This document shows, piece by piece, positions 78 through 44,391 of a stretch of 58,308 nucleotides of DNA. The first letter of the stretch is position 1. Every line of letters starts with the position of its first letter. Source of the stretch: a virus (Duplodnaviria > Heunggongvirae > Uroviricota > Caudoviricetes). The DNA lies in IMG/VR virus record IMGVR_UViG_2778261696_000003, one strand, 5' to 3'. The notes beneath the pieces are model-generated. The model searched no databases, had not been told where the DNA came from, and was given only the letters and a program-made list of their open reading frames with translations. The translations under genes were made by a program, and so were the position numbers.

Positions 78-217
78 AAGTAAGAGCAAAATACCCCTGG
101 CTGGTCCCTGTTCATGCCGATGGTGTGGTTGGAGGCAAGAAAGAATTCACCTTGCTGAACAAGTCAGAGATGGAGTTACTGGCTGACGCCTATGAGATGG
201 CAAACATCATGCACTAA
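78..217 (+). pseudogene. Possible 3' remnant of a gene interrupted by the transposon (frame ends ...EFTLLNKSEMELLADAYEMANIMH*)
   Basis: Open frame without plausible start, abutting the IR and ending at TAA 215-217; identity unknown. Confidence 0.25.
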
Positions 218-406
218 TAAATATATTATTTTTAATGATAAATGATTGACAACTGACAAGTGACTTCAGTCAGAATCATCACATGCCCGGTACGGATGGA
301 TCCCTTTTCAAATATTCCATGGACGGCACAGTCTGAGTACCGGGCGCTACCTTCAGTTGTATTGCTAAGCCGCCGCTGGTGGCTTTTCTTTTTTGTAGGG
401 GGCGCT

Positions 407-1048
407 ATGGATAAGAAAATATGCGTTGTTTCGATGAGCGTCGGCAAACCGGCGTCAATGACTGCTGCATGGATCAATAACGAGCTGATAATGGCTGAGC
501 GGACCAGCTACCCTGAACGCCGCCGCGATATGGAACTCCAGCTGCTGCGCGAATTGCGAGAAAAAGAGGAAAAGGGTTTTATCGTGCTGGTGGAAGAGGA
601 AAACAGCTTTATTACTGGTCGAGTTGGCCAGCGTGTAAGGTTGCGCGATCCCTTCATGAACGGCAGGCCGGTACTAATTGAGGCAATGCAGATTTATAAG
701 GAGCTGGAACGCCAGAAAGCAATCAAGTTACCGCGCAAGGAATCCGGCAAATACATTCTCCACCAAAGCATCTTCGATTCCGAACACGATAAAAAAGGCG
801 ATGAATTTTTCAACATCAACTGGAGCGAAATAACGACAGAGCATGTTCTGACGTTACTATGTTGCTTTGCGACGGAATACAACAACGTTGCCAGCGCCGA
901 CTACATCAGGGCAATGGCTGGAGAAGTTGAGGCCCGCCAAGAACCATCGTTACTAAGTCCACTGATTAACATAATTCTGGGCACCCAGATACTGGAACAA
1001 AAAAAAGTGCCGAAAGGGGTATTAACAGGCAAGCATAATTATTTTTAA
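407..1048 (+). CDS. Hypothetical protein, 213 aa (accessory locus, upstream of the toxSAS gene)
   Basis: ORF track 260..1048; ATG at 407 preceded by AGGGGG Shine-Dalgarno-like sequence; co-oriented with and 93 bp upstream of the RelA/SpoT-domain gene; no recognisable motifs. Confidence 0.55.
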   Translation: MDKKICVVSMSVGKPASMTAAWINNELIMAERTSYPERRRDMELQLLRELREKEEKGFIVLVEEENSFITGRVGQRVRLRDPFMNGRPVLIEAMQIYKELERQKAIKLPRKESGKYILHQSIFDSEHDKKGDEFFNINWSEITTEHVLTLLCCFATEYNNVASADYIRAMAGEVEARQEPSLLSPLINIILGTQILEQKKVPKGVLTGKHNYF

Positions 1049-1141
1049 CAATTACATACAGTAATTTTGTGGTTACATTCTCCATTGATTTTCTAACCGC
1101 TTTATCATTAGATGTAACAGCATGTAAATCATTTAAAATGG

Positions 1142-2278: not shown

Positions 2279-2286
2279 TTGCTTAA

Positions 2287-2311
2287 TTTTGCCCGGTAAT
2301 TCCGGGCAAAA
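2287..2311. terminator. Perfect inverted repeat hairpin (TTTTGCCCGG-TAATT-CCGGGCAAAA) between convergent genes
   Basis: 10-bp arms read directly from sequence; no U-tract after the stem on either strand, so it may be a binding site rather than an intrinsic terminator. Confidence 0.3.
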
Positions 2312-2314
2312 TTG

Positions 2315-2563
2315 TCAATCTGCATTCAGGAGCAATGCGTTATCTATGATGATCTGCTCCCATTCTTCGAATGCCCGATCGCGGACGCCCTGGGGAACAC
2401 TGTTAGTTTTGAAATCGACCACCGTCCGCCATTTTCCGTCAGGACGGTACATGCGCAGAGCTTTACTTCCCCCTTCCCTGCGCACCTCAACGTTATGCTT
2501 ATCAGCAAACTCTTGTAATGCTCGTAGCGTCCCATGCTTTACTGTGTAGTATCGCTTTTTCAA
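2315..2563 (-). CDS. lxc: Lxc-like small protein (C1 co-repressor/Bof), 82 aa
   Basis: Position downstream of ulx-like and darB on the same strand as in P1; size matches recalled P1 Lxc. Synteny only. Confidence 0.45.
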   Translation of the reverse strand: MKKRYYTVKHGTLRALQEFADKHNVEVRREGGSKALRMYRPDGKWRTVVDFKTNSVPQGVRDRAFEEWEQIIIDNALLLNAD

Positions 2564-3000
2564 GTTTTCTCTCCAGCCTGTGCTAAGGCTTCAACTTCCA
2601 AATCGTAAGACTCAAACTCATAGTCCTGGTCGTCAACCTCTTCAGGCACTGGCAGTAAATGCCAGGCTGAGTATATCTGACCATTATCAAAACGCTCCTG
2701 GCTGTAGAGCGTCGCGGCTATGAGTGTTAGCGCCGGGCGGTCATAACGGTAAATTTTGCGAACGTCACGGTCAACGAGACGACCGAAATTACCATAACCG
2801 CGCTCCAGTAATAATTTTTTAATTTCCGGCCAGTATGGACCATAGCTGCGGTACAGGCGGGGATTTTTCAGTAATCGCCCGCGTAGCCCTGACAGGAAGA
2901 AATCAACGTATTCGTCTTCTGTCTTTCCTAACAACGCTGTACGGAGTACCGCCTCAAGATATGTTTTATTCGGTTTTATTGTATCAGATAGTGTGGCCAT
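2560..3000 (-). CDS. ulx: Ulx-like protein, 146 aa
   Basis: Immediately downstream of darB, 4-bp overlap with next gene; synteny with P1 darB operon. Confidence 0.45.
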   Translation of the reverse strand: MATLSDTIKPNKTYLEAVLRTALLGKTEDEYVDFFLSGLRGRLLKNPRLYRSYGPYWPEIKKLLLERGYGNFGRLVDRDVRKIYRYDRPALTLIAATLYSQERFDNGQIYSAWHLLPVPEEVDDQDYEFESYDLEVEALAQAGEKT

Positions 3001-3033
3001 ATTATGCGACGCCCGGCGAACCGGGCGCTCCTG

Positions 3034-6000
3034 TTATGCGTATTGTTGGATGACGGCCAGAACGTCCGCCACGTTGTGTTTTGTCTCGATAATCCACCAG
3101 TTACCCGGGAAATCGCTGTTCTTCGCCTTCGCTGGCAGCCAGCGAGCGCCGAATTTCGCCTTGATTGCGTCTTTCGCACGGAAAAGAACGCCTTTCATGC
3201 CTGAGGCTTCCTGAAGCCCAAATACCTCGCCAGCGGCGAATTTTGGTGCGTACATCATCTTCAGGTCGGCGGTGGATACGCGATAATTCAGACCAAGAGA
3301 CTGAGCTATGCTGGTGGCATCACCCTGTATTGATGATAACTCTTCTTGTTTCTCGTTTCTGGCGGCAATTTCTTCCTCCGTGATGTTGCCAAGGGCCAGG
3401 TTTATCCGATCAGCGTCTGCCTGTTTCTCTTCATCGGTGCGCCCGGCAAGTACCGTGTTAATTCTGTGCAATATCTCCACATGATTCTTGCGCATGCTGA
3501 GCAATTCCGGCGTAACCTCGTTAAGGTCCACCAGCCCAAGGATGGCAAGGTCGGTAAACATTGATACCAGGTTGTAGGTCATGCGATAGCTGAGTTGCCC
3601 ATAGGCTGATGGCAACTGCACCGCATCCATTTTATAGGCATCCATAAATTTAGAGCCGTCGTTTACGACATCCGCAATTGCCGGTGTGATTTTTCCTGTG
3701 GTGGCGGCCTCCCTGATTGCTGTTACCCACGATTGAGTCAGCGCGGCGACTGCATGATTCAGATTGACTTTCCGTTCTGCTGCAATGCGCGCGCTTGCTG
3801 CGTCCATTGCCTGCTTGATCTCGTCTTTATTGCTGTAAATGCCAATGGTGCCAAACTGTGCTGTGGTGATCTCATAATCTGACGCCCGGAACTCATTGGT
3901 ACCGAAAATGGCATTGGTGACTTCAAGTTCAGAATCCCCGTTACGAGTAGCCCCCTGGCTTGTTTTCTCCGGCATTCTGGCGATCGCATCCGCTATTTTC
4001 TCCTGAATTGCTTCAGGGGATAGCGTATCTCCGTATGACGCGATTACATCGCCATAATTGGAGCCAAACAGTTCAACCAGGAATGCTTCTGCCGAACGGA
4101 TCTGGCGGTTATTCCCTTCCGACATCATACCAAGCACCCATTTTGCAATTGACGACTTCAGCGCGCCGTCACGGCGATCCGGGTAAACCGCATGCTTCAG
4201 TGGGTCCGTATAGGTACCAACAAAATCAATGCTATAGCCTGACTCTGTAGTCTGAACGCCGTATGAGTCAGTGATTTTGATCATGCCGCGCTGCTGGAAA
4301 CGGTAGAAATCGTCACAGGAAACGATGTCGTTAATCCCGGCGATGGAGACGCCACCACTGATTTTCTGCATAACAGCATCTTCATCGGGAGTTACATCAA
4401 CCTGTTTATCCAGCGTCTTCACATCCCAGTTACCAGATTTGGTGCCTTTGAAGGTGAAGATGATCTCCACGTCTGCGCGCTGGCTGTCGAAGTCCAGCGA
4501 CTTAATGCGAACGATATCACCGGCACAATCGTAGTATTGGCCTACACGCCATGAGCGATCGCCGATAACAAGGAACTCACTCGCATGGTTAACCAGGTCA
4601 GGATCAACATCCAGAATGCCTTTATTTAATGCATCCTCCACCAGCGGGCGCAGGCGTTTGATATCCGTCGCGGCCTTCTGAGTACGGTTCAATAATTTCT
4701 CATAGCGGGAGATTGCTTGAGAGATATTAGCCTTGCGCTGAATGGCGCTTTTCAACGACGCGCGATACTGTGCTAACAACATACGGTCTGTGTGATGGAC
4801 ACTCCCCCAGCGTGCCTTCCAGTCTGCGTTATCCGCTGCCTTGGCCATTGCCGCCTGTTTGAATTTAGCTACCTCGGCGGTGGTCTTTTCAAGTTCCGCT
4901 TTGCTTCGCTCTAATTCAGCGGTAAGCACCTCCACATCCTCACCAGCTGCGTGCTGCGCCTTGATGTAGTTCTGAAGGTCGATAGTAGCCTGTTCTTTCT
5001 GGCGAGCGCGTTGCGCAGCTTTCGCCTTATCCATTTGAACCTGCATCATTGCCAGACGTTCGCCATCATCCTTAGCGGTATACATCTGCATTTCGATCAT
5101 ATCGTTGGCGTCGGCGTTCTCCATTTCTGACTTATCTGAACGGAGGATATCGGAGATCCAGCCTGCTTTACGCTTCAGCGTCTTCAGTCGGTATTCATCG
5201 AAAGAACCCTTGCCGCAGTAGTAGTGAACGCGAACGCTTGCACGGTTGGAGCCAACTCGGGCACCGCGACCGTTTCGTTGCGCAATACTGGCTGGAGTCC
5301 ATGGCAACGTCAGATGATGGATGTCAGTCGTTCCTCGATGCAGGTTGATACCCACCTCTGCCTTTTTGTTGCAGATGATGATCGGAGTCCGGCCCTCCTG
5401 GAAGTCGGCTGCAATCTTTTCCAGACCGCCCAACAACATTTCATTTTGCTGCGCGATATAGGCGTCATACAGAGCCATTTGCTCGTTGTATTTCGCTATC
5501 TGTGCATCTGTTGGTTCATCCGGTAACTCTTTCGGCGGTTTAACCGCTTTCAGTTTCTTACCGGTTTTACCTGCCTCGGCAACCGTCTGAGCATTCAGGA
5601 TCCCCACCTTTGAAGGTTCAAGGTTTAGAGCATTGCAGATAATGCGCTTGAGCTTCTGGTGCTGCGTTTTTTCATCGGTGAAGATGATTTGCTTACCTTC
5701 CGGGAAAAACTCCTTCAGCGTGGCGATCAGCTTCGCGTATTTCGGCGTAACGGGGTGAGTTACGGTCTGTTCGTCAATGCCAAACCTGGCCAGGCGCTTA
5801 TTCACTTCCTGCTCGAACGCTTCCGGAACCTGCAACTGAATAAACTCGCCCTTATCTATCAGGGAGTATTGCGATTGCTGCGTGATTGAATCATCACTGT
5901 CGTCGTCTTCGCTGGTGGCTTGTTTAGGCAAACTGTCCGCCAGCTGCTGCACCGCATCGGCGTACTCCGGCAGGAAACGATAGGTGATCCGGCGATAGTA

Positions 6001-9000
6001 CAGGTCCATGTCAGTACATACGCGGTCCATATCCCTGATTATTGAGAAGGTCGGACGGGCTTTCTCGTGCTCAATCACGCCGTCTTCATTGACCGAGGTC
6101 GTTACGCCATTGTTGGCTTTGGCCGCCGCTTCCGCCTGCTGACGCAATTCTTCATACGCCGCCAGTTGTTCTTCAGTAAGTGGTGCATCCTGCTGGTGTT
6201 CGTCCAGCTCCGGGATCTCCACGGTATCCTTAACGTCTTCCGCCGTTTTAAGCGTTACCCAGCGATGGAATATACCGCGCAGCGCATCAAGGTTTTCAAA
6301 GCCCACCAGCGCCATTTTTTCTTCAACTTCACCGCTGATTTTCTGTACCGTTTCCAGCCTGGTCTTGCCGAAGAATTTAACGAAGTCATCAGGACCGTAG
6401 ATCCCCATCTTCTGCCAGTATTCCTTCGGCAGAACATGAGAAAGCATGTTGTATGCATCGATCGGGGTGTTAACGACTGGCGTTGCAGTCAGGAGAACCG
6501 GCCCGCGCCCGCCATTCTTTTTCATCAGGTACGCGTTTTTAATTGCCATATCCCGCGCCGATTGCGCCACCGCGCTGGTGGGCAGATAGGCCAGTTGTGA
6601 CGCTTCGCGACCATTTTTATAGCTATTGCGGTAGTTGTGGCCTTCGTCAGCAATCACGCTGTCGAAGCCCATATCCTCAAAGTACGGATACTTCTCTGCT
6701 TTTTCGGTACCGGTATCTGAATACTCCGACAATACCCGGCGACGCGCCGCCTCTTTGCGGTGGGAGTCGGAGTCCATTGCGCTGGCTACGCGCCCGGCGG
6801 CAACGAAGTCATAAAGCATGTCTTGTGCATGCTCATCTACGGTGTCATCACGTAGCGGAATGCGGGCGTATTGTTCTTTGGTAAACACGACTGCACGGTA
6901 ATTTGAGTGCGGGATCGCGTTCATCCGCGCCGTGATAGTGGCTTCATCTGCCAGCTTAAGAGCATCGCGCATAACTGGAGTGCCATCAGTACCAAGAACA
7001 GGTTTACCGTTCTCATTGAGCACCGGCACCTGGCGAATCTGATCGCCATCCATCAGCACATCAAGACCGACGAACAGGTAGTTACTGAATGCCTCTTCAC
7101 TCAGGAACTCTTTTGCTTCGTAATACCAGTTTTCCAGCACTGATTTAGGCACTACATACGCAGTACGGGTGGAGCGACCGTTCTCATAGTTGAACGCCTC
7201 AAGCGCCAGCGCGGTCGTCGTTTTACCCAGCCCGGTGCCGAAGCCCAGGATGCCGCGCCCATCTTCGGACAGTCGTCTCACCTCGCTATTCTGGTAATCA
7301 AATGGCTGGCGCTTACCGCTTAATCCCTTCAACCCAAGCGGATCGCCAGAGTGTTCATACGGGATATTGCTATTGAACACATCGTTGTATTTGGCAACCA
7401 GCTCATCGTAGCGATCGTGCGTCTTGATCCACTTATTGAACTGGTCCTCAAGCAGTGCCATCTGCTCGCGGTAGCCGTTCGCCGTCGCGCTATCTTTGCC
7501 ACCGATACGCGCACCATTGAGATACTTTTCCAGCTGTGCCGGGAACCCGGTCGCGTTTTCACCTGATTTACGGTCCCACTCGTAGCGGATCTCGCCTGTT
7601 TCTTTATCCTTGCGCTGGACGACACCGTATCGGTGCCCGACGAACAGACCATCACCACCGTGATAGGTGTCAGAAACCATTTCGTCGCCTTCCAGCTGCA
7701 CTGACTGCACATAGCGAAGATCCGGATAGCCGTTTTCCTGCAAAAATTCCAGAATGACGGAACGGTCGAACCAACGGCTATTGAGCTTAAAGCGGATATT
7801 CTCTGCTGGCGTCTTGATGCGCTTCTCTTCGATCGCTGCCAGCTGATTAAGGACGTTGTTCTTTACTGGACCGTCGGGGAGTGTGGCAAGGAATTCCTGT
7901 TTTGGTGCCACTATCTCGTTAATGTCGCCGCTGGTGGCGCGGGCGAACGGAACAATCCCGCCATACGGTGAAACCGCAATGCCAGGGGTGCTGGCCAATA
8001 AATTAAGCAACTCGTCATCACTGGCTGGCAGTTCGCCGGTAAACGCAAGGCGGAAATCATCGAGCTGGATTGGATCGCGAGTGAGATCACTGTAGAGATA
8101 ACGCAGGGTGTCCTGATAGCTGGTAGAGTCATAACTGGCGCTGGAATCATGCGTAACCAGTTTTCCTGTCAGCTCGTCAGAAATAGTGCCATCCAGCTTA
8201 ATTGCACCACGGAAAGCAAACCAGGCGCGCGCACTGCTCCCCGATAATTTCGCTATCGGACCGCGACCGGGGTTACCAAAACGGTCAATCTCTGCCTGCA
8301 AACGGGATACCAGAGAAAGGCGCTGCTGTTCGATTTGTTCAGCACTATGCCCGGCGGCCTTCATGTCCTGATATTCAATTAACATCCGGCCAATCATCGC
8401 CCCGCGATACAAGCGTTCACGGTATTTTTCAGGCTGGCTGTTAATCCAGTCCACCAGCTGCACCATATCGTCGCTGATTGATGTGGTGTACTTATCGCGG
8501 ACATTTGCCATCTGGGTAAATGTCATGCCGAGACGGCCTTCTGTTGTAGTCAGGTTACGCTGAAGAGCCTCCCAGCTATCCGCGCCATAACTGGCAGCAT
8601 CGATCTTAAGTTCCTTCCCTGCATCAGCTTCAATCCAGCGACCACCAGCATATTTTTGCCATACGCCATTAATCAGGCGCATTTCCCCTTCACCAACAAC
8701 GTCTGCGGTCGGTGACGGTTCAGCCATATCGAGCAAAGACCAGTCGATACGGCTTTCGAAACGATGAATCAGCTTCGCTTTAAGAGCCTGGTTATCAATC
8801 TGACCGTCGGCACGAACCTCAATACGCCCCTGGAAGCCCTTTTCCTGGGTGCCATGAACAAACCGGCGGCCATCCTTTTCAAACCACTTGCCAGAAATAA
8901 ACGTTGACCAAAGCACATTTGCCGATTCGAGAGTGCTTTCATCCACCAGGGGGATTTTCTCAGCCATCTCTGCCGGATGTTTGCGCATCAGCACCACATC

Positions 9001-9801
9001 TACGACCGTACTGGTCCCGTTAGCGTCAAAAGTACCGGTAGGCAAGCGGTGGGCACCAAGAAATTCAGCTTTCCGTGATAGGCGCAGGCGTAACCGCTTC
9101 ATGTTTGAACCTGAAACAATGGACGGCGGCACAATCACGCACATGAATCCGCCTGGCTTTATCTTGTCCAGCATGCGGAGCATGAAGTAAGAACCCATGT
9201 CCGTTTCTTCTGCGTAAGGCTTATCGATGTTGCGTGTGTTATCACGACCACCGAACGGAACGTTACCCACAACATGGTCGAATGAATCGTTAGGCGTGCT
9301 TACAGCCAGTTGTTCGAACGGGGAAATCTGTACGCTGTCTTCCGGATGTAACAGCTGGTTTATACGACCGGAAACACTGCTGATCTCAGTCGCGGTCATC
9401 ACCGTACCAACCGGTTTTGTCTCATTAAAAACGCCGGTTCCCGCCGATGGTTCCAGAGTGTTACCTACGTCCGCGCCGTAGAGCTTCATGATCTCCCAGA
9501 CACCTTCAGCGATCGGCTTTGGTGTGTAATATTCGGAGACGGACCCGCCAATGCCGCCTTCGCCGGTGTACCCAGCCAGGATCTGGCGCTGTTCATCTGT
9601 CAGTGTCGCGCCGTCCACCAGCGAATTAAGCAAATCTATCGCCTTCTGATTCGCCTCCCGGCGTAGTCGGTCATAGCTTTTGCCTTCCACCTTTTCCACG
9701 CCGTATCTAATCGGCGCTCGGTGAGATGTTATTGCCCTAATGTATTTCAATATTTCGCTGACACTTGAACAGCGAAACACCCCTATAGATAGCTTGTTCA
9801 T
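3034..9801 (-). CDS. darB: DarB-like giant anti-restriction protein (N6-adenine methyltransferase plus helicase domains), 2255 aa
   Basis: 2255 aa as recalled for P1 DarB; methyltransferase motifs (EPSAGTG; VVGNVPFGG) and helicase motifs (GFGTGLGKTT Walker A; VIADEGHNYRN) read in translation; RBS AAGGA before ATG. Confidence 0.85.
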   Translation of the reverse strand: MNKLSIGVFRCSSVSEILKYIRAITSHRAPIRYGVEKVEGKSYDRLRREANQKAIDLLNSLVDGATLTDEQRQILAGYTGEGGIGGSVSEYYTPKPIAEGVWEIMKLYGADVGNTLEPSAGTGVFNETKPVGTVMTATEISSVSGRINQLLHPEDSVQISPFEQLAVSTPNDSFDHVVGNVPFGGRDNTRNIDKPYAEETDMGSYFMLRMLDKIKPGGFMCVIVPPSIVSGSNMKRLRLRLSRKAEFLGAHRLPTGTFDANGTSTVVDVVLMRKHPAEMAEKIPLVDESTLESANVLWSTFISGKWFEKDGRRFVHGTQEKGFQGRIEVRADGQIDNQALKAKLIHRFESRIDWSLLDMAEPSPTADVVGEGEMRLINGVWQKYAGGRWIEADAGKELKIDAASYGADSWEALQRNLTTTEGRLGMTFTQMANVRDKYTTSISDDMVQLVDWINSQPEKYRERLYRGAMIGRMLIEYQDMKAAGHSAEQIEQQRLSLVSRLQAEIDRFGNPGRGPIAKLSGSSARAWFAFRGAIKLDGTISDELTGKLVTHDSSASYDSTSYQDTLRYLYSDLTRDPIQLDDFRLAFTGELPASDDELLNLLASTPGIAVSPYGGIVPFARATSGDINEIVAPKQEFLATLPDGPVKNNVLNQLAAIEEKRIKTPAENIRFKLNSRWFDRSVILEFLQENGYPDLRYVQSVQLEGDEMVSDTYHGGDGLFVGHRYGVVQRKDKETGEIRYEWDRKSGENATGFPAQLEKYLNGARIGGKDSATANGYREQMALLEDQFNKWIKTHDRYDELVAKYNDVFNSNIPYEHSGDPLGLKGLSGKRQPFDYQNSEVRRLSEDGRGILGFGTGLGKTTTALALEAFNYENGRSTRTAYVVPKSVLENWYYEAKEFLSEEAFSNYLFVGLDVLMDGDQIRQVPVLNENGKPVLGTDGTPVMRDALKLADEATITARMNAIPHSNYRAVVFTKEQYARIPLRDDTVDEHAQDMLYDFVAAGRVASAMDSDSHRKEAARRRVLSEYSDTGTEKAEKYPYFEDMGFDSVIADEGHNYRNSYKNGREASQLAYLPTSAVAQSARDMAIKNAYLMKKNGGRGPVLLTATPVVNTPIDAYNMLSHVLPKEYWQKMGIYGPDDFVKFFGKTRLETVQKISGEVEEKMALVGFENLDALRGIFHRWVTLKTAEDVKDTVEIPELDEHQQDAPLTEEQLAAYEELRQQAEAAAKANNGVTTSVNEDGVIEHEKARPTFSIIRDMDRVCTDMDLYYRRITYRFLPEYADAVQQLADSLPKQATSEDDDSDDSITQQSQYSLIDKGEFIQLQVPEAFEQEVNKRLARFGIDEQTVTHPVTPKYAKLIATLKEFFPEGKQIIFTDEKTQHQKLKRIICNALNLEPSKVGILNAQTVAEAGKTGKKLKAVKPPKELPDEPTDAQIAKYNEQMALYDAYIAQQNEMLLGGLEKIAADFQEGRTPIIICNKKAEVGINLHRGTTDIHHLTLPWTPASIAQRNGRGARVGSNRASVRVHYYCGKGSFDEYRLKTLKRKAGWISDILRSDKSEMENADANDMIEMQMYTAKDDGERLAMMQVQMDKAKAAQRARQKEQATIDLQNYIKAQHAAGEDVEVLTAELERSKAELEKTTAEVAKFKQAAMAKAADNADWKARWGSVHHTDRMLLAQYRASLKSAIQRKANISQAISRYEKLLNRTQKAATDIKRLRPLVEDALNKGILDVDPDLVNHASEFLVIGDRSWRVGQYYDCAGDIVRIKSLDFDSQRADVEIIFTFKGTKSGNWDVKTLDKQVDVTPDEDAVMQKISGGVSIAGINDIVSCDDFYRFQQRGMIKITDSYGVQTTESGYSIDFVGTYTDPLKHAVYPDRRDGALKSSIAKWVLGMMSEGNNRQIRSAEAFLVELFGSNYGDVIASYGDTLSPEAIQEKIADAIARMPEKTSQGATRNGDSELEVTNAIFGTNEFRASDYEITTAQFGTIGIYSNKDEIKQAMDAASARIAAERKVNLNHAVAALTQSWVTAIREAATTGKITPAIADVVNDGSKFMDAYKMDAVQLPSAYGQLSYRMTYNLVSMFTDLAILGLVDLNEVTPELLSMRKNHVEILHRINTVLAGRTDEEKQADADRINLALGNITEEEIAARNEKQEELSSIQGDATSIAQSLGLNYRVSTADLKMMYAPKFAAGEVFGLQEASGMKGVLFRAKDAIKAKFGARWLPAKAKNSDFPGNWWIIETKHNVADVLAVIQQYA

Positions 9802-9812
9802 TGGTAATCCTT

Positions 9813-9823
9813 AACAAGTGACT
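9813..9823 (+). promoter_or_regulatory. Candidate P1-type late promoter element (AACAAGTGACT) upstream of prt
   Basis: Same 11-mer recurs upstream of the lyz operon and the capsid gene (on their coding strands), each followed about 10 bp later by an A/T-rich -10-like hexamer. Confidence 0.3.
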
Positions 9824-9867
9824 AGTGTTAAATTCCGTTCAAACACGATGCGAATTATTCTAATTAA

Positions 9868-12598
<2,731 letters not shown>

Positions 12599-12604
12599 CC
12601 ACCA

Positions 12605-12637
12605 AAAATAACCCCGGCAGCTGCCGGGGTTCTCGTT
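12605..12637. terminator. Bidirectional intrinsic terminator (CCCCGGCAG/CTGCCGGGG stem)
   Basis: Perfect 9-bp GC-rich palindrome followed by T-rich tracts on both strands, between convergent genes. Confidence 0.5.
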
Positions 12638-12642
12638 AACTA

Positions 12643-12903
12643 TTATCGCCTTCGCCTGCGTGCCATATATTTGCGCACCGCGCGGCGTGGACAATCTGAA
12701 GCGGTTTCTTTCTGCTGCATCAATCTCGCAGCCATGCTCAAAAATGTCAGGCACAGCCGAAGCCCGGCATACAATAGCGGTTCCAGTGGCCACGTCTCAT
12801 TGAGCACATATACCGCCATGAAAATCGAGTCAAAAACTATCGCCGCCAGCGATAACTTCATTGTCGAAAGTCGGCGGAGCTGCCGGAGTTTATTCATTGA
12901 CAA
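12643..12903 (-). CDS. Small membrane protein downstream of lyz (lysis-associated), 86 aa
   Basis: Hydrophobic segments and Arg-rich tail; overlaps lyz stop by 14 bp. Confidence 0.4.
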   Translation of the reverse strand: MSMNKLRQLRRLSTMKLSLAAIVFDSIFMAVYVLNETWPLEPLLYAGLRLCLTFLSMAARLMQQKETASDCPRRAVRKYMARRRRR

Positions 12904-13447
12904 GCCCCGTCAGGCAAAGCTGGCGTTCTTTTTCACGGCGAATCTTTAAACCTCGCAGGGGCACGCCGTTACTGTTCACGAAATCAGGGAGATGGTTACA
13001 CATATTCACCCATTCCCCTTTCTGCGCCCACTTGTGGATGGACGTTTCTACTCGCATGCCTCGCGCTTTGCTGTAGTAGGTCCGTAAGCTATTGCATCCC
13101 ATATTGAATGCCGCGCTTGTCATTGCACTGAAGGCATTATCGGGCATGTCTTTGCCCCGGAAGTGCTGATTAATACAGCGTTCAGCGATCAGGATATTCT
13201 TTTCCCAATCAGCGGCGATTTGCTGGTCGGTTTTTCGCACACCCGGCGTTACCCCGTGTGTATTACCGATCCCGTCAGTCCATACCCCCGCCGGGCACAT
13301 GTATGGATCACGTCGGCAACCTTCAGCGTTACCAATCAGCTCAAGCCCCGCCTGGTTGGTTCGCACATTGCCATTACCCATTACGATGGTAATCATCACC
13401 GCGATAGCGCAAATTGCACCGCCTCCTGCGGCTGTTTTTCCCTTCAT
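12890..13447 (-). CDS. lyz: SAR endolysin (lysozyme), 185 aa
   Basis: N-terminal weakly hydrophobic signal-anchor (GGGAICAIAVMITIVMG) then lysozyme-like core (GNAEGCRRDPYMCPAGVWTDGIGNTHG); size equals recalled P1 Lyz. Confidence 0.8.
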   Translation of the reverse strand: MKGKTAAGGGAICAIAVMITIVMGNGNVRTNQAGLELIGNAEGCRRDPYMCPAGVWTDGIGNTHGVTPGVRKTDQQIAADWEKNILIAERCINQHFRGKDMPDNAFSAMTSAAFNMGCNSLRTYYSKARGMRVETSIHKWAQKGEWVNMCNHLPDFVNSNGVPLRGLKIRREKERQLCLTGLVNE

Positions 13448-24769: not shown

Positions 24770-27700
24770 TATGCAAACTCCTCGATAATACAAATCCCTG
24801 CAGCGCCTTTCCCGCCCGTCATACTGGTTCCGCTATAACCGGCATCGTATGCACCACCGCCGCCCGAACCATATGCCCGACCGATAACGCCACCGCCAGC
24901 GCCTGCGCGACCACCGCCCCCCCAGAACGATGATCCTCCTTCACCACTGACGCTGATATTTCCGGACTGACCGTCACCTCCATGCCCACCAATAATGCGG
25001 ACATCACCAGTATTCGGCGCGCCTCCATTACCACCGTTCGTGTTTGTGACTCCTACTTTCCCGCCGCCTTCACCGCCAGGGGCTATTACCGTTCCGAACG
25101 AGCTATCACCGCCCTTGAGGCCGTTCGTCGCACCAACACCGCCGCCCCCACCTGCGCCGATAGTGACTGGATAACTATTCTGTGTCGGGGTCATTATTGA
25201 AATTATTGTCCCACCGGCCCCACCGCCAGCACCGAAAAACGTCTCGTTATTGGATGTAGCCTGGCAGCCACCACCTCCGCCACCGCCGCCCGTAATTGTG
25301 ACCCTGATTCGTTTTGTTCCTGGCGTCGGGGTATACGTACCTGATGAAGTGAAAACCCGGGTATTCACCAAACGCCCAACATATCCGCTTGAATCGCTCA
25401 GGCCAAGGTTAGCAGCAGTTAAAGTAATATTTGCAGAACCATCAAACTTAACACCGTTGATAGTGCGTGCAGTCTGTAGTTTCGTTGCGGTTGCGGCATT
25501 ACCGGTAGTGCTCTGATTACCTGCTTTATTCACGCCCGGCAGGTCGATATTGGCACTACCATCGAATGACACTCCGCCTATTGTGCGTGCTGTTTGCAGT
25601 TTTGTTGCAGTTGCAGCATTGCCGGTAGTGCTCTGATTACCTGTTTTATTCACGCCCGGCAGGTCGATATTGGCACTACCATCAAATGACACCCCGCCGA
25701 TTGTGCGTACTGTTTGCAGTTTCGTAGCGGTTGCAGCATTGCCGTTCAAACTACCATTGATGCCGCCAGTAACATTGAGTCCATTACCGATCGTAACAGT
25801 ACCATTGGCATTGTTAATGATAAGCGGCCTTAAATTATTATAGGTTCCCAGGCTGTTACCCGAATTGGTCAACATGAAATATGTGTTTGAACCATCGTTT
25901 CGGATAAAGAATCCGTAGTTTCCGTAGGCAATGCGCAGACCATTCGCCGATTTTGAAATGATCTCACCAGTAGCCGTTAAACCGCCGTTGAGATTTCCTC
26001 CGGTTATTGGTAATGCGCCGACATCCGTGGCGGTCGGTTTAATGTGCGAACTGTAAATTACATATACAGTTCCATCTGTCAGGCCTGTTGGTTTATTCGC
26101 TGTATAAGATGGTGATGTATGAATCGTTACGCTGGCGTTACTGGTATAATCCCACTGAATATTAACACGTGTGGTGTAATTACCTATTTCAACATAAACA
26201 TCATAGGTATCACCGGATGTATTCACCCATGCAAAATTAGTAAATCCAACCGATGTCCGTCGCCATAACGCACCAGTAAGACCTTTTGGATTCCCATTTC
26301 CCGCACGAAGAACAAGTTCAGATATACCAGCCTGCATAGGGGAGTTAACATTATATCCAGAACCACCAATCAGGCTTATGTAAACCACGGAACTGGACTG
26401 TGGCATGGTTACAGTTGCCAGCTTGAACCATCCAGTACCACCACTAAAAGACATTGTTGTTGAGTTGATCGTGCCTATAGACCTTGGAGTTAGCTCAATG
26501 TTTTTAGAACCGTCAAACAACACCCCATTTATAGTTCTAGCGGTTTGTAACTTGGTCGCTGTCGCTGCATTACCGGATGTATTCTGATTACCCGCAACGT
26601 TAACACCAGGTAAATTAATATTCGCAGTACCATCAAAGCTAACTCCGCCGATAGTTCTTGCCGTCTGTAGTTTTGTAGCAGTTGCCGCATTGCCAGTTGT
26701 ATTCTGATTGCCAGTGGCATTCACACCAGGAATGGAGTCCCTTGATGTATATACCTGCGCCCACGCTGACCATGCCGCATCAGTGTGATCTCTTCGGGAG
26801 CGAATGAAAACCGGCGCATGTGCACCGCTCGTACCACTCCAGCCAATAAGCAACTCGCCCTCACCAGCAGCACTCGCACCTTTCATGTGCAATACGTTGC
26901 CATACGCGGTCGGGTAGCTATTGTTGTACGCCTCATACATCTGCAATCCAGTAGAAGCACCTTGTGTTGTATCGGTGAGCGCAGTAACACGCCCTCTGGA
27001 CGCAATTGTTGGTATCGAAATGTTCGCAGAACCATCAAACTTAACACCGTTGATTGTGCGTGCTGTTTGCAGTTTTGTTGCAGTTGCGGCATTACCGGTA
27101 GTGCTCTGATTACCTGCTTTATTCACGCCCGGCAGGTCGATATTGGCACTACCATCAAATGACACCCCGCCGATTGTGCGTACTGTTTGCAGTTTCGTAG
27201 CGGTTGCAGCATTGCCGGTAGTGCTCTGATTACCTGCTTTATTCACGCCCGGCAGGTCGATATTGGCACTACCATCGAACGACACTCCGCCGATTGTGCG
27301 TGCTGTTTGCAGTTTTGTGGCGGTGGATGCATTACCTGTCAAAGATCCACTAAGAGCCACGGCACTAAGAGACTTAACACTTACATCCTGACCCCATCCG
27401 GAAACAACAACCTGACTCCACGCTGCCCAGCTTCCATTAACAACAAAGCGAACGTATATACGTTTTGTGTCGTTGCTGATCAGCGTTTGCATGTTCGCAT
27501 AATCCGAAGCAGAAACTTTGCGAGTCGACTCTACACGGAGCAAAAAGTTACCGTTTACGCCGTCAGGCTTGTTGGTGATATTTGCACCACCTCCAAAGGT
27601 TGGACAATAATAATATTTAATTGCCCCGACATCTGAGCTGATGGTCAGGTTGTTAAGATCAACCGTCTGGTCGCCAATTTTTTCCGGCTCGATGGCTCCT

Positions 27701-31987: not shown

Positions 31988-32343
31988 AGCACCACGTCCT
32001 GTGTGATAGTTATATCCCTGATACGAATGGATATTTTCAACTTATCAAAAGCATCTCCCTCGGCTACTGACAAGCCAGAAATCGGTATGTCAGGTAAATC
32101 TACCGTCAGTTTTTGCAACAGCATTGCCTCAACCGCAATTTGAACATGCGACAAGTTGGTCGGTTCGTGTTTAAACTGCGGTAAAACATTGCCCCATGAC
32201 GGATCTCCGTATACCTCACCCTGATAAGTGTTTAGCCACTCATATAAACGAGCGCCCCAGGCCTCCTCCTGGGACTCATACGTTTTTACGCCGGATAACT
32301 CCAGCGTCAGCAAAGGATCAATTTCGTTATTGTTGGCCATCAA
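31984..32343 (-). CDS. Small baseplate-associated protein, 119 aa
   Basis: Translationally coupled between sit-like gene and baseplate gene. Confidence 0.4.
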   Translation of the reverse strand: MMANNNEIDPLLTLELSGVKTYESQEEAWGARLYEWLNTYQGEVYGDPSWGNVLPQFKHEPTNLSHVQIAVEAMLLQKLTVDLPDIPISGLSVAEGDAFDKLKISIRIRDITITQDVVL

Positions 32344-34880
32344 TCAACTCTCGCGTAGTCATTCATCAACGGATCATCAATTGACAGTGGTACCGTGCGC
32401 ATAACGCCCGGCTGAGGCGTGCTGACCTTTACGACAGTTCCCTGGCCTTTCGCCGAGTCTTTGGTGTGCTCTTCAATCCTGGCAAGCAATGAGGTCATCT
32501 GCGCAAACAGCCGCTTCGTTTCACCATCAAGTGAAACGGTATTATCAGCCAACTGCATTGTCGGCTTGGCACCGGAACCGCCAAGGTCACTAATAACCTG
32601 CCCGTCTATCTGCATACGACCGGTTGGTTGCTGCAAATCGTTGGCGGCAGTCGTCACCTTGGACGTGGAGGCTGGTTCAGTCGCATTATTTTTCCGCATC
32701 CCCGGCGAGTTGCGGAGTTTATCGAATAGTCCATCAATCCCCATTTGTGCGCCGAGTTGGTCAAAGTAACTTGAGTTGCTGGCCACCGGACGCGCCTCTT
32801 CAACTGGCATCGGAGTATCAACATACACATTGCCAGCTGCTGTTGCGGTCCCCTTCCCTCGTGCACGTTCTTCGAGCGTTCCCTGAACGACTTCCCGACG
32901 CATACCCCGGCCATTCATGAATTTGTTGACCAGATCGTTAACGCCAACAGCATTGCCGATTTTGTCTACCAGACCGCCTTTCTCAAACGGGCTATCACCA
33001 GGGGTAAACGCCAGGCCAGTAGACTGATCGATAACAGCGTTATCAGGCAGTGGTCCCCTCACTCCATATTGCGCCCCACCCTGTGCTCCTGCTCCAGGTG
33101 TATAGATTTCACCACCTAAATAGCGAGCACGATGAGTATTGACCTTGATCGCGTACTCACGGTTTTCTTTCGATAAGTCACCTGTGCCTTTTTTCCACTT
33201 ATTGATAGTGCCAAACCCAGCGTTATATGCAGTGATGGCCTCGTTTAAGTCTCCATTGGCTTGCTTCAGATACTTGCTCATGAGAAGAGCCGCAGCTTCT
33301 GCCGATTTCACAGGATCAAACGATTCACCTTCAGCTAAGCCAGTCTCTTCACGAGCAATCCCCGTGAACTGAAACATTCCCAGAGCACCGGTTTGGGATT
33401 TTGCATACGGATTACCACCAGATTCAGTTGCAGCAATCGCGTAAAGAGTGCCTTCTGGAAGACCATATTTATTCTCTAGTTCAGCAAAATACGGAGCCAA
33501 CTTATCGAGATTTGCCTTACCTTCAGATCCAAGACTTCCGACTTTTACATCCAAGCGGCCATTGTTGTAGGTATCCGCAGCTTTCTGAATGTCATTCCTG
33601 GTGCCAGTGGTATTAAGCGACGATGATGACGAGCTATTTTGACCAATAGCTTTATCAATTTTCTGCAACGCGCTATTGCCCGTTTCTACGGCATTTGCAT
33701 TGATAATCTGATTCGCAGTTTCTTTAACTGTTTTATTGCTATCTTTCGCCGTGTCCAGTGCCGCATTTATCACGCGGGTAACAATATTAGTCTGTTTGGC
33801 ATCGGATTCAGTTTTAGAATCAGATGTCTCCTGGTGGCTATTAACCGGAGCTTTTAACTCTGGAGTGATTTCTTTCGCATTAGCCTCGCTCTTAACCGGA
33901 GCTTTTAACTCTGGAGCGATTTCTTTCGCATTAGCCTCGCTATTAACCGGAGCTTTTAACTCTGGAGTGATTTCTTTCGCATTAGCCTCGCCGATCGGAT
34001 TGGGTATTTTTGATACAATCATTGCCGCAGGGGTATTTTTAACGGCATCAACCGCTGCATCTAATGCTTTACCAGGTAAATTTTTAACCCCATCCCAAAT
34101 ATTACCAGCCGCCTCTTTAATGTGTTTCCCTGGGTTCTTAATGAAATCAATTGCACTATCAATTGCATCACTGAAAACCTGTTTCAGGTTATCAACAGTA
34201 AAGAAGTCTTTGATGGCATCCAGCTTTTCAAGCAGCTTATTAGATGTATCGCTAAACCATGCTGAAACAGCATCACCAATCTTTGCTGTGTAATCTTCGA
34301 ACTTGGTAGAAATGGTGTCGCCAAGGTTAGAAATATATGTTTCTAAGTTGGTAATCCCACTATCAATGGCCTGGGCAATACTTTCCGTCGAAAATGATTG
34401 CAACATATTGCCGATATCCTCAAATCCAAGTGATTTGAGAACCTCACCAATGGCGCTGCTAATACCAGATACCAGTCCCCCCATATCAAGAACATTGGCT
34501 AACGTATAAGCGGCTTTTTGCTGGAATGATGGATCTTGTCCTGATTTAAGCCCAAACGCTCGACGTTGCGCTTCTGTATCATTCCAACCGGTTACCGCAT
34601 CATAAATACCTCCAGCCACTGTGCCGACTAAGGGAATTGCGCGTAACGCCCCTTTACCAACTGCCTTTAATCCAAGTTTACCTGCTGCCCGGGCAGCCAA
34701 ATCTCCACCTTCATGGGCGATAGTCTTCTTGCCACCACCGCGTAGCATTCCTACAAGTTTCTTTGCCCCCAGAGCGCCAAAAGCGAGTGCTCCAGCTTTT
34801 TTCAGCATGCCACGCCCCATTAACAACGACGCGACGCCACCGGCCCCCTTCCCTAACAGGCTAAATAGTTTGGACAGCAA
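32340..34880 (-). CDS. sit: Sit-like tail protein with lytic transglycosylase domain, 846 aa
   Basis: SLT-type motif region (GALGMFQFTGIAREETG...AYNAGFGTINKW) and Gly-rich N-terminus. Confidence 0.65.
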   Translation of the reverse strand: MLSKLFSLLGKGAGGVASLLMGRGMLKKAGALAFGALGAKKLVGMLRGGGKKTIAHEGGDLAARAAGKLGLKAVGKGALRAIPLVGTVAGGIYDAVTGWNDTEAQRRAFGLKSGQDPSFQQKAAYTLANVLDMGGLVSGISSAIGEVLKSLGFEDIGNMLQSFSTESIAQAIDSGITNLETYISNLGDTISTKFEDYTAKIGDAVSAWFSDTSNKLLEKLDAIKDFFTVDNLKQVFSDAIDSAIDFIKNPGKHIKEAAGNIWDGVKNLPGKALDAAVDAVKNTPAAMIVSKIPNPIGEANAKEITPELKAPVNSEANAKEIAPELKAPVKSEANAKEITPELKAPVNSHQETSDSKTESDAKQTNIVTRVINAALDTAKDSNKTVKETANQIINANAVETGNSALQKIDKAIGQNSSSSSSLNTTGTRNDIQKAADTYNNGRLDVKVGSLGSEGKANLDKLAPYFAELENKYGLPEGTLYAIAATESGGNPYAKSQTGALGMFQFTGIAREETGLAEGESFDPVKSAEAAALLMSKYLKQANGDLNEAITAYNAGFGTINKWKKGTGDLSKENREYAIKVNTHRARYLGGEIYTPGAGAQGGAQYGVRGPLPDNAVIDQSTGLAFTPGDSPFEKGGLVDKIGNAVGVNDLVNKFMNGRGMRREVVQGTLEERARGKGTATAAGNVYVDTPMPVEEARPVASNSSYFDQLGAQMGIDGLFDKLRNSPGMRKNNATEPASTSKVTTAANDLQQPTGRMQIDGQVISDLGGSGAKPTMQLADNTVSLDGETKRLFAQMTSLLARIEEHTKDSAKGQGTVVKVSTPQPGVMRTVPLSIDDPLMNDYARVD

Positions 34881-34909
34881 GCCGCCCTTCTTTTTCCCGG
34901 TGTTTTTGG

Positions 34910-36604
34910 CTATCTGATCAAGGGCGCTGAGAATCTTGTCATTGCCCTCTTTAATTTCGCTGGTCTGCTCCTGAAGTTCCTGAACTGTCCGTTTTTGGGT
35001 GTTAACCTGAACGACATCGGCACTATTTTGCGATTTACGCCTAAAAAAACTTTTCTACGGCTGTTATCGTCATTGCCACGAATCACATCGGCAATAGACT
35101 TTCTGGCACCATTAAGCGATCCACCAACTTCTTTTGATATCCCGCCAAGCTCCTTCCCTGCTGCCCACAATGGACCAGCAACGGCATAACCTAACGCATC
35201 AACGGCACGAGTCTCTGAAGGGTTACCTATGCCTTCAGCTACTTTTGACAGTTTTTTTAATAAACCTGATTCAGCATTTAGACGCTCATCATCCTCTTTG
35301 CGCCTGGCCTTTTCAGCACGTTCAGCACGGGCATCTTCCGCTGCGGCCTTACTCCCTGACTTTCCAATAAAACGACCACGCGCATCGCGTTGGTTTTGGC
35401 TTTTTTGCGCACCGCCTTTTTGATCGAACATTTCGCGAGCGTGTTCGGCTGCTTCGGTCCGTTGTGCCTTTATATCCTCTGGTATAGCCTTCCTGCGTCG
35501 TTTTTTACCCTTTGGTGTAGTTGATTTGGCCTGCTGTTCCTGTTGAGCAATGCCCTCCTGAACTACACGAGAAACGTCCCCTAAATTAAGCCGTTTCATT
35601 GCGTCAACAATAGGGTCTACTGATGGCGCATTGGCCACAAAGTCTGGCCGGGAATTTTCGATTGTTCGATTTAATGCCGACACACTGCGAGATACTGGGT
35701 CAACCGTTGCAACGCGTTCCCCTTTCAAATCACGAGCGAGTTTGACCGTTTCTAACCGCTGTGCTTTAACATCCTCTGTTATTGCCTCTCTTCGTCTATT
35801 TGGGGGATTGTGCGCTGTTGGTGCAGCCTGCTGTTCACGGTTAGTGACTTTGTCCTCCCGTATACGAGAAACGTCCCCTAAATTAAGCCGTTTCATTGCG
35901 TCAACAATAGGGTCTACTGATGGCGCATTGGCCACAAAGTCTGGCCGGGAATTTTCGATTGTTCGATTTAATGCCGACACACTGCGAGATACTGGGTCAA
36001 CCGTTGCAACGCGTTCCCCTTTCAAATCACGAGCGAGTTTGACCGTTTCTAACCGCTGTGCTTTAACATCCTCTGTTATTGCCTCTCTTCGTCTATTTGG
36101 GGGATTGTGCGCTGTTGGTGCAGCCTGCTGTTCACGGTTAGTGACTTTGTCCTCCCGTATACGAGAAACGTCCCCTAAATTAAGCCGTTTNNNNNNNNNN
36201 NNNNNNNNNNNNNNNNNNNNNNNNNNNNNNNNNNNNNNNNNNNNNNNNNNNNNNNNNNNNNNNNNNNNNNNNNNNNNNNNNNNNNNNNNTGTTGGTGCAG
36301 CCTGCTGTTCACGGTTAGTGACTTTGTCCTCCCGTATACGAGAAACGTCCCCTAAATTAAGCCGTTTTATTGCGTCAACAATAGGGTCCACTGATGGCGC
36401 ATTGGTCACAAAGTCAGGACGTGAATTTTCGATTGTGCGATTTAATGCCGACACACTGCGAGATACTGGGTCAACAGTTGCAACTCGTTCCCCTTTCAAA
36501 TCTTCAACAGCTTCCCGGATACCTGCAAGCTCTTCCAGCTCTTTTGCACTGGCGGTTTCAACTGTCCTTATAACATCGTCAATGTTGGCGTTTTTTCTTT
36601 CCAT
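34910..36604 (-). CDS. Repeat-containing tape-measure-like protein (N-terminal module preceding sit), at least 564 aa; interrupted by assembly gap
   Basis: ORF contains X run from the N gap; 99-aa peptide unit repeated at least three times; basic coiled-coil C-terminal region. Confidence 0.5.
   Translation of the reverse strand: MERKNANIDDVIRTVETASAKELEELAGIREAVEDLKGERVATVDPVSRSVSALNRTIENSRPDFVTNAPSVDPIVDAIKRLNLGDVSRIREDKVTNREQQAAPTXXXXXXXXXXXXXXXXXXXXXXXXXXXXXXXXXKRLNLGDVSRIREDKVTNREQQAAPTAHNPPNRRREAITEDVKAQRLETVKLARDLKGERVATVDPVSRSVSALNRTIENSRPDFVANAPSVDPIVDAMKRLNLGDVSRIREDKVTNREQQAAPTAHNPPNRRREAITEDVKAQRLETVKLARDLKGERVATVDPVSRSVSALNRTIENSRPDFVANAPSVDPIVDAMKRLNLGDVSRVVQEGIAQQEQQAKSTTPKGKKRRRKAIPEDIKAQRTEAAEHAREMFDQKGGAQKSQNQRDARGRFIGKSGSKAAAEDARAERAEKARRKEDDERLNAESGLLKKLSKVAEGIGNPSETRAVDALGYAVAGPLWAAGKELGGISKEVGGSLNGARKSIADVIRGNDDNSRRKVFLGVNRKIVPMSFRLTPKNGQFRNFRSRPAKLKRAMTRFSAPLIR
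35500..36500. repeat. Tandem array of 297-bp (99-codon) repeats, at least 3.3 copies, copy number unresolved because of gap
   Basis: Unit starts at 35568, 35865 and 36162 (period 297); partial copy resumes after the N run. Confidence 0.8.
36191..36289. other. Assembly gap (99 N) inside the tandem repeat array
   Basis: Run of n characters in the sequence. Confidence 0.99.
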
Positions 36605-36685: not shown

Positions 36686-37567
36686 TCAGCGTCCTGAATC
36701 GGTATACCCCCATACAAAACCAGGTTGGACACTAAGGTCTGATAGCTTTTCAATCCCCACCTGTGGAATGAAGTCGGTAGCCCGAAAGGGCACCCACAGA
36801 CGGGTATACGCACCCTCTGTGGACTCCTTTTTATCCTGATTTGGGCATTTATGCGGCGGGAGACGAAGACGCATTTCACCTTTATCGATGTAGCACGGTA
36901 AACCATGTTCGAGCTTTTCATGAGCCAGTCGGATGTGTGCCGCCAGCTTCATAAATTCAGTATCAATGGCCATCCGTTTAATCGTTTCATAACGACGCTC
37001 AGCCTGATCTTCACGAGTACCGCTAACATCGTTATAAAGCTCACACTGATAAGCGAATTCCCAAAAACGCAAATCAACGATCGCTTCTTTGAATTCCGCG
37101 TCGTCTTCAGGTGGCAATGCTGCACGGCGCATCTCCAGCATTTCCATTGCCCAACCATCAAGCGGCACGATACGCCATTGATAAGGTACTCCCTCTACAG
37201 ACACCTCAATATCGTCAATGAAAGGTTCCACTTCCAGGACCTGGATATCTTCAGCCAGAGCATTCATATCGCAATCGTAATAATGCTCTTTACCGCAATG
37301 TTTACAGGTGTAAGTGAATGTCTCGACCGGTGTTTCACGGGAGCCGGTAAATATCCACCATAACGCGGTAATCCGGTCCTGCGCCGTCCATGTCAGGGGA
37401 TCATGTTTCGCGGGTTCAGCCAGCAAGGCTTTTAAATACGCCGTTGTCTGTTGTTCTTGTTCCTCCGGTGTTATCGAGTTGAAACGCATCGCATCAGCAA
37501 TATTTGGCTGACGGAACTGGATCAATTCAGTTGGCCGCGATGGTAGCGGGAAAAGGGGTAAAAGCAT
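36686..37567 (-). CDS. Phage structural/morphogenesis protein with Cys cluster (CKHCGKEHYYDCD), 293 aa
   Basis: ORF with possible zinc-binding motif; position in tail gene cluster. Confidence 0.4.
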   Translation of the reverse strand: MLLPLFPLPSRPTELIQFRQPNIADAMRFNSITPEEQEQQTTAYLKALLAEPAKHDPLTWTAQDRITALWWIFTGSRETPVETFTYTCKHCGKEHYYDCDMNALAEDIQVLEVEPFIDDIEVSVEGVPYQWRIVPLDGWAMEMLEMRRAALPPEDDAEFKEAIVDLRFWEFAYQCELYNDVSGTREDQAERRYETIKRMAIDTEFMKLAAHIRLAHEKLEHGLPCYIDKGEMRLRLPPHKCPNQDKKESTEGAYTRLWVPFRATDFIPQVGIEKLSDLSVQPGFVWGYTDSGR

Positions 37568-40349: not shown

Positions 40350-40519
40350 TGTATTTTTAAGTCACGAATGCTATCTTTTCGCATCATATTGACCTTTTAA
40401 TCGTTCAGGCTTATAGTTCCGCCGTCGTAGCAAATTCTGCGACCGGGTTTAGCAGCCTGAATGATTGTGCGGACAGCCGCAGATATCCGATATTGCGGTA
40501 TTTTTGTGTCCGTAAAACC

Positions 40520-40600
40520 GCGTTACGCCCAAATTATGGTGGGGCGTGATGGGGAGGCTTCGGCCTGCTGGTTTCACAATCGCCAGTCTGCTAACCCCGT
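40520..40600 (+). ncRNA. c4: Candidate c4-type antisense immunity RNA
   Basis: Segment carrying TCACAATC and CTGCTAAC, complementary to GATTGTG/GTTTAGCAG elements found both upstream (about 40447-40470) and downstream (about 40615-40650, covering the icd RBS). Boundaries approximate. Confidence 0.3.
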
Positions 40601-40664
40601 CACGTCCTGCCACCTGTTTAGCAGCGGGTAGCAGGTTGTTAAACCTGATTGTGAGGCCGTAACT

Positions 40665-44061: not shown

Positions 44062-44129
44062 TACAATCGTTGCGGGTGCTTGAGGCTATCTGCTTCAGGC
44101 ATTACCCGAAAAGCAGATAGAAGAAAGCC

Positions 44130-44200
44130 CCAGATAACATTACGCGTCCTGCAAGACGCTTAACATTAATCTGAGGCAATATCTATGCTTAGCATACGTA
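44130..44200 (-). ncRNA. sok: Candidate Sok-type antisense RNA of the hok/mok locus
   Basis: Minus-strand promoter-like TTGACC (plus coords 44225-44230) with GCTAAT -10-like hexamer, directed across the mok start/hok leader. Boundaries approximate. Confidence 0.3.
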
Positions 44201-44391
44201 GATTAGCCTCTTACCGACCAAAAGGTCAAGGAGAAGCAGGCTATGAAGCAGCAAAAAGCGATATTAATCGCTCTGATCGTCATCTGTTTAACCGTCATTG
44301 TGACGGCACTGGTAACGAGGAAAGACCTCTGCGAGGTACGAATCCGAACCGGCCAGACGGAGGTCACTGTCTTCACAGCCTACGAATCTGA
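44185..44391 (+). CDS. mok: Mok-like overlapping reading frame (translational coupling frame for hok), 68 aa
   Basis: ORF overlapping hok in another frame, as in hok/mok/sok loci. Confidence 0.45.
   Translation: MLSIRRLASYRPKGQGEAGYEAAKSDINRSDRHLFNRHCDGTGNEERPLRGTNPNRPDGGHCLHSLRI

Follow-up and report, generated by a model that had tools for sequence, protein, structure and literature searches.

The sit locus and its surroundings

The repeat array considered here lies on the minus strand, within sit, a gene that belongs to a P1-like phage-plasmid (Punavirus, IncY), in a window (the whole stretch of DNA that was analysed) of 58,308 nucleotides. The sit gene, which is treated below as a pseudogene, occupies 32340..36604 on the minus strand and measures 4265 nt as drawn or 4088 nt after collapse of the gap that lies within it. 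It is represented by two minus-strand open reading frames. The N-terminal ORF (34910..36604) has 564 codons, 33 of which are X from a run of N, while the C-terminal ORF (32340..34880) is assigned 846 aa because the ORF finder counts from the first TTG; the Sit frame is actually open upstream to ~35055. When 32340-36604 is used as a megablast query, 21 phage records are matched, 17 of which cover at least 80% of the query, and the sit genes of P1, P7, and JL22 match at 95.9-97.4% nucleotide identity. A Sit protein repaired by restoring one G (1362 aa) aligns end to end with the Sit proteins of P1 and P7.

The surroundings of the gene are also those of P1. Directly upstream of sit lies pmgB (36686..37567, minus strand), as identified by the P1 annotation and by a match to phrog_1854 'PmgB-like' (E = 1e-154), and directly downstream lies the baseplate gene pmgA, called bplB in P7 (31984..32343, minus strand). 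The order pmgB-sit-pmgA-bplA, within the late tail operon, is the order found in P1, and the flanks in P1, P7, and JL22 are as in the window, with pmgB upstream and pmgA/bplB, bplA, and gene 16 downstream of sit. The C-terminal third of Sit contains an SLT lytic transglycosylase domain (Pfam PF01464; 33162..33491, minus strand; residues 464-573 of the 846-aa ORF), which scores 94 bits against a cut-off of 21.3 (E = 5.9e-27). In the P1 annotation sit is described as a 'putative structural injection transglycosylase; putative tail ruler'.

Gonzales et al. 2022 found Sit in P1 virions by mass spectrometry, argued from its size, its helical N-terminal two-thirds, and its SLT domain that it is the predicted P1 tape measure, and suggested that PmgB is the tape-measure chaperone (PMC9024508). 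The original prediction had placed the repeats in a tape-measure-type gene, and that gene is indeed sit, the P1 tape measure predicted in the literature (PMC9024508); what had to be amended is the strand, since the gene is read from the minus strand. Sit is a virion protein with a C-terminal SLT domain and a long N-terminal part, the latter being the predicted tail tape measure.

Beyond this locus, the window is collinear with the closed plasmid pEC15-3 (NZ_CP060921.1), at 99.4% identity over 2317-36190 and 100% from position 36290 onwards. The window and pEC15-3 differ by 185 substitutions, which lie outside the pmgA-pmgB stretch, and most or all of them probably fall in 2317-13302, a segment with a large N-6 DNA methylase gene that is only 98.3% identical to a second plasmid, pXH987-OQX. 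Given that both pEC15-3 and pXH987-OQX match the remainder of the window at 100% identity, a past recombination event in the 2317-13302 segment is suggested. The first ~2.3 kb of the window (1-2317) has no pEC15-3 alignment except for a 910-nt piece at 96%, and the other end of the window, 58308, is the point where a copy of IS100 sits in pEC15-3. The window resembles pXH987-OQX but is without its IS26-oqxAB insertion. In that plasmid, IS26 copies flank oqxAB (57377-64097 and 78537-79241 of the record), and the segment lying between these elements runs in the opposite orientation to that in the window; because one IS26 truncates a tail-fibre gene, pXH987-OQX has a second tail defect besides the one in sit.

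Other features of the window include two 120-nt tandem arrays in the tail-fibre (S) gene region (25459-25744 and 27031-27336; ~2.4-2.5 copies with 87-89% matches), which are ~1.3 kb apart and cross-match at ~91% identity. Rfam models place the C4 antisense RNA of P1 immunity (69.6 bits) and its a1/b1 target (55.5 bits) at 40411-40463 and 40532-40617; these adjoin the icd/ant genes, and the immI region appears intact. Beside hokD, at 44074-44248, is the sok antitoxin RNA (RF01794, 114 bits), which belongs to a hok/sok addiction module. Finally, clusters of 21-42-nt imperfect tandem repeats surround repA (52641-53938), and these are probably P1-type incC/incA iterons.

The 297-bp array and the run of N

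A 297-bp in-frame tandem repeat and a 99-N gap had both been noted in the original prediction, and both are present. Tandem Repeats Finder reports a period of 297 with 2.1 copies and 100% matches over 35567-36190 (score 1248), and a repeat search identifies three 297-nt copies at 35520-35816, 35817-36113, and 36291-36587, the third of which lies beyond the gap and is more diverged. Each unit corresponds to 99 codons and is in frame with the minus-strand ORF 34910..36604, and the modules are situated close to the N-terminus of Sit. In a register that begins at DLKG, the array of 99-aa (297-nt) modules extends over 35435..36502 (minus strand) and consists of module u1, which spans the gap (36502-36368 together with 36190-36029), module u2 (36028-35732), and module u3 (35731-35435), all on the minus strand. 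The gap is thus located inside the array, as had been claimed.

The Pfam search of the 99-aa module returned only borderline, implausible matches (Snurportin1, DUF1179), with no significant single stretch, and the PHROG matches are Sit-like families of unknown function. A single-sequence AlphaFold2 model of 380 aa of the module region has mostly helices joined by coil linkers, at low confidence (mean pLDDT 55, pTM 0.19).

The run of 99 N (36191..36289) is the sole N run in the window. The same 78-mer ends the left contig (36113..36190) and opens the right contig (36290..36367), so that one copy is redundant; a 77-nt register of the gap flanks gives no match. The left contig stops precisely where a 327-nt run of perfect period-297 identity ends (35864-36190), and immediately after the right-hand 78-mer comes the first base that separates u1 from u2, a T at 36368 as compared with a C at 35894. 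In addition, the pEC15-3 coordinates of the two gap flanks overlap by 78 nt. Removal of the 99 N and of one 78-mer takes out 177 nt, or 59 codons, and the frame is unchanged either way. The pmgA-to-pmgB stretch collapsed in this manner (5,407 nt) is base for base that of the closed plasmids pXH987-OQX and pEC15-3.

With identical contig ends and a break at the boundary of a longer exact repeat, the N run marks where scaffolding joined two contigs that the repeat had separated, rather than missing coding sequence of that length. A short-read assembler with no unambiguous exit from the 327-nt exact repeat would have broken the contig at its last base, and a scaffolder would then have linked both contigs with 99 N, retaining the shared 78-nt overlap twice. 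The pattern is that of a de Bruijn assembler at a branch node, and an overlap of 78 nt would fit k = 79. The contig break at the 327-nt repeat also suggests that the window is a short-read assembly. Treatment of the N run as a one-to-one mask of real sequence can be discarded: to keep the repeat in phase, the flanks would have to lie 219 + 297n nt apart, which 99 nt does not satisfy, and an insert of this kind is found in no relative.

Module number among relatives

A comparison of repeat number among relatives, which the original prediction had proposed, reveals alleles with one, two, or three modules. The Sit proteins of P1 (1140 aa) and of P7 and JL22 (both 1130 aa) have one module. A two-module Sit of 1231 aa is encoded by phi456, a plaque-forming phage that makes plaques on MC1061, and intact three-module alleles of 1338-1340 aa are carried by plasmids from the Netherlands, the USA (Houston), and Senegal (Dakar).

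The frequency of these alleles was estimated using an inter-unit-specific linker query of 141 nt (35732-35872), which has no megablast-detectable counterpart in one-copy alleles. Among sit-bearing PLSDB records, 137 of 478 contain the linker, at 145 places, which corresponds to ~8 records with two linkers and hence three copies; among sit-bearing complete E. coli genomes, the linker is found in 198 of 469, at 207 places and at most two per genome. Consequently, at least two modules are present in roughly 30-40% of sit-bearing records, three in ~2%, and a greater number in none of them. In 60 evenly sampled records the spans between the flanks, 3331 nt for one copy and 3627-3628 nt for two copies, agree with the linker counts. 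Copy number had also been read from BLAST identity bands, but the resulting value (~43% with at least two modules) conflicted with the flank-span sample (~27%), and the linker query was used instead.

Individual modules can be traced across lineages. Each of the window modules u1, u2, and u3 matches the unit with the same number in the Dutch and US alleles at 98-99% identity, and the pair of units in phi456 is equivalent to u1 and u3. These unit-by-unit counterparts across lineages indicate that the three-copy allele arose once, and they speak against independent origins and against an assembly artefact. The number of module copies would probably change by unequal recombination or replication slippage. 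The closest intact parallels are the three-module arrays of pRIVM_C029554_1 (WP_225104282.1, 1338 aa) and of pEC2_5 / p211899A_LBHALD (WP_250663835.1, 1340 aa), with units 98-99% identical to those of the window. A three-module sit region of 4013 nt is also found in the phage vB_EcoM-813R1 (ON470617.2), where it has 61 stops in frame 1, one unit spacing of 296 instead of 297, and an annotation as several small ORFs; these frame breaks are probably uncorrected long-read errors. Literature searches found no account of this sit module polymorphism.

A second in-frame tandem repeat is present in sit at 33837..33991 (minus strand), where a 51-nt unit (17 aa, EANAKEITPELKAPVNS) occurs in three copies at 96% identity. 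This 17-aa module is single in P1, P7, JL22, and the Dutch three-module allele. The Sit proteins of pRIVM_C029554_1 and pEC2_5 / p211899A_LBHALD are intact with one 17-aa module, whereas the window has three 17-aa modules and is frameshifted. Sit lengths of 1229, 1239, 1244, 1256, 1273, and 1307 aa are found among the best 120 database matches, a survey that establishes that length classes exist rather than how frequent they are, and these lengths fit combinations of the two repeats. Since database Sit lengths differ by 17 and 34 aa, the 17-aa repeat seems to be polymorphic as well. In all, the number of modules per allele varies from one to three for both the 99-aa and the 17-aa type, and the proteins range from 1130 to ~1360 aa.

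Compared with P1 Sit (gp037, YP_006507.1, 1140 aa) and P7 Sit (1130 aa), the gene in the window has the same locus, the same SLT domain, and the same N- and C-termini, and is ~96-97% identical at the nucleotide level outside of the repeats. It differs in having three 99-aa and three 17-aa modules where P1 and P7 have one of each, and in a frame that is broken by a 1-nt deletion. Repaired, the window protein is 222-232 aa longer than those of P1 and P7, and its 1362 aa can be written as 1130 + 2×99 + 2×17.

How many modules the window itself contains can be judged from the contigs and from its closed relatives. The original prediction had stated that there were at least three copies and that the true number was unknown. 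The lower bound stands, because k-mers starting at 35816-35863 in the left contig represent a repeat-unit junction that is possible only with three or more copies; the rest of that statement can be narrowed, since the collapsed sequence is identical to that of two closed three-copy plasmids and the number is therefore most likely exactly three. It is quite unlikely that the gap conceals further 297-bp units, which would give at least four copies and a tape measure longer than that of any closed relative. Such units could be accommodated in that the break occurs at a loop of the assembly graph, the passes through which are unreadable from the contigs alone, and in that copy number does shift within this lineage: pEC18-3 (NZ_CP060916.1; 91,063 bp), from the same study as pEC15-3 (91,360 bp), carries two copies, and the two plasmids differ in length by exactly 297 bp. 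However, the collapsed sequence matches two closed plasmids exactly, none of the 469 complete E. coli genomes with sit exceeds two linker places (no genome in this set has more than three modules), and the PLSDB tally of 145 linker places in 137 records likewise speaks against longer arrays.

The one-base deletion and its consequences

Alignment with P1, P7, and JL22 locates a 1-nt deletion that splits sit at 35050..35051 (minus strand). At this position the relatives have AGAAAAGGTTTTTTTAGG and the window has AGAAAA-GTTTTTTTAGG (gene strand), i.e., one G is missing beside a run of seven T's. Upstream of the deletion the 564-aa ORF is genuine Sit, to about residue 518; its final ~46 residues are out-of-frame read-through that ends with the stop at 34910. 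Past the deletion, Sit continues in the frame of the 846-aa ORF. The window consequently has a 564-aa and an 846-aa ORF in place of one uninterrupted sit frame. The original prediction had left a choice between two genes and one gene split by a frameshift or an assembly error; one gene split by a frameshift is the reading that holds, while an assembly error is probably not the cause. The same prediction had put the frame change at 34880-34912, which is incorrect, given that the alignment places the missing G at 35050/35051; the interval 34880-34912 merely happens to contain the stop codon of one ORF and the first start codon of the other. The proposed frameshift signal at 34880-34910 can be dismissed as well, since the actual frame change lies 140-170 nt further upstream in the gene.

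The distribution of the deletion was determined using a 72-nt probe across 35050/35051, for which a perfect match was required. The deletion is present in 5 of 478 plasmid records and in 5 of 471 records from complete E. coli genomes (469 genomes), and the other 466-473 records keep the base. The carriers are pEC12-3, pEC15-3, pEC18-3, pXH987-OQX, and the XH989 plasmid (pXH989), all from human urine in Hangzhou, and RefSeq annotates sit as 'frameshifted' in these deletion-bearing records. The same 1-nt deletion is common to the window and all five sit pseudogenes. The records of pEC15-3, pEC12-3, pXH987-OQX, and pXH989 have the three-copy array of the window, and pEC18-3 has two copies; the Hangzhou records are free of gaps, whereas the window has the 99-N gap. 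Because pEC18-3 and pEC15-3 both carry the deletion and have two and three modules, respectively, the copy number changed after sit was broken.

In the window, the lost G causes translation to leave the Sit frame after about residue 518 and to stop at 34910, and sit is a pseudogene. Two other accounts would leave the element with some full-length Sit. According to one of these, the missing base is a sequencing or assembly error beside a homopolymer, and sit is intact and encodes a 1362-aa protein. The base in question does lie between a run of four A's and a run of seven T's, and since all five closed records come from one city and two submissions, a shared systematic error is conceivable. Nevertheless, this account is very unlikely: the deletion is found in five closed records of five strains and also in the separately assembled, non-identical window, it is missing from ~466-473 other records obtained with many sequencing technologies, and short-read assemblies are not prone to errors at a GG dinucleotide. 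As the window differs from pEC15-3 by 185 substitutions, it represents an independent genome, and because five closed records and a non-identical assembly share the deletion, it is most likely a real, lineage-specific mutation.

According to the other account, the mutation is real but leaky, such that -1 slippage or the insertion of a U by RNA polymerase on the run of seven T's yields some full-length Sit, and weak infectivity, beside an abundant 564-aa N-terminal fragment. The deletion brought GTT TTT TTA into the zero frame (35042..35050, minus strand), where the heptamer T_TTT_TTA (35042-35048), preceded by T at 35049 and G at 35050, has the X_XXY_YYZ codon phase; slippage by -1 at this site would return translation to the Sit frame, giving ...RRKVFLRRKS.... 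Furthermore, X_XXZ_ZZN heptamers do not require a stimulator to increase frameshifting in E. coli (PMC4066793). However, without a stimulator such heptamers reach only 2-10 times a background of ~0.055% (PMC4066793), and a stimulatory RNA structure was not detected in the 82 nt downstream, which fold no better than shuffled sequences (MFE of -13.2 versus a shuffle mean of -13.7 kcal/mol; z = 0.19). In addition, the split-gene arrangement is not conserved, being a recent mutation in 5 of ~475 relatives (5 of 478 plasmid and 5 of 471 E. coli genome records) while the others have one continuous ORF, and the zero-frame product ends in an unrelated 46-residue tail. These observations argue against designed or efficient recoding at T_TTT_TTA, to which we assign a low probability, and a leaky frameshift is hardly to be expected. 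There is similarly little chance that the deletion has created an accidental recoding site from which low-level -1 ribosomal or transcriptional slippage yields a little 1362-aa Sit, the longest allele in this analysis, beside a truncated N-terminal fragment, with rare particles that have extra-long tails.

Taken together, the results make it highly probable that the locus is a P1-like sit with a three-copy allele, a gap caused by the repeat, and a 1-nt deletion that has turned the gene into a pseudogene. The region is a known gene that carries a rare long allele and has been inactivated in this lineage. This accounts for both the gap and the appearance of 'two genes' and permits annotation of the element as a P1-like phage-plasmid in which sit is frameshifted. 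Judging from the frameshift, the element most likely no longer assembles normal tails and would persist as a plasmid. If so, phage-like spread has probably been lost from this plasmid lineage, which includes one carrier of oqxAB.

The intact alleles bear on the function of Sit. For the tape measure proteins lambda gpH, T4 gp29, and TP901-1 TMP, the length of the protein sets the length of the tail. Like these, Sit is a long protein encoded between tail tube/chaperone and baseplate genes, with in-frame tandem duplications in its predicted helical part. Unlike theirs, the ruler role of P1 Sit is a prediction made from size, position, and secondary structure (PMC9024508). By analogy, it is reasonable to suppose that repeat number may set tail length in P1 Sit, and 99-aa modules would make a helical ruler longer. 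Tail-length values are absent from the publications describing phi456 (two copies) and JL22 (one copy). Assuming extended helical modules with a rise of 1.5 Å per residue, each 99-aa module would add ~15 nm to the tail. Intact alleles of the series are available in sequenced strains, and the natural one-, two-, and three-module alleles would provide a direct test of Sit as the tail ruler of P1.
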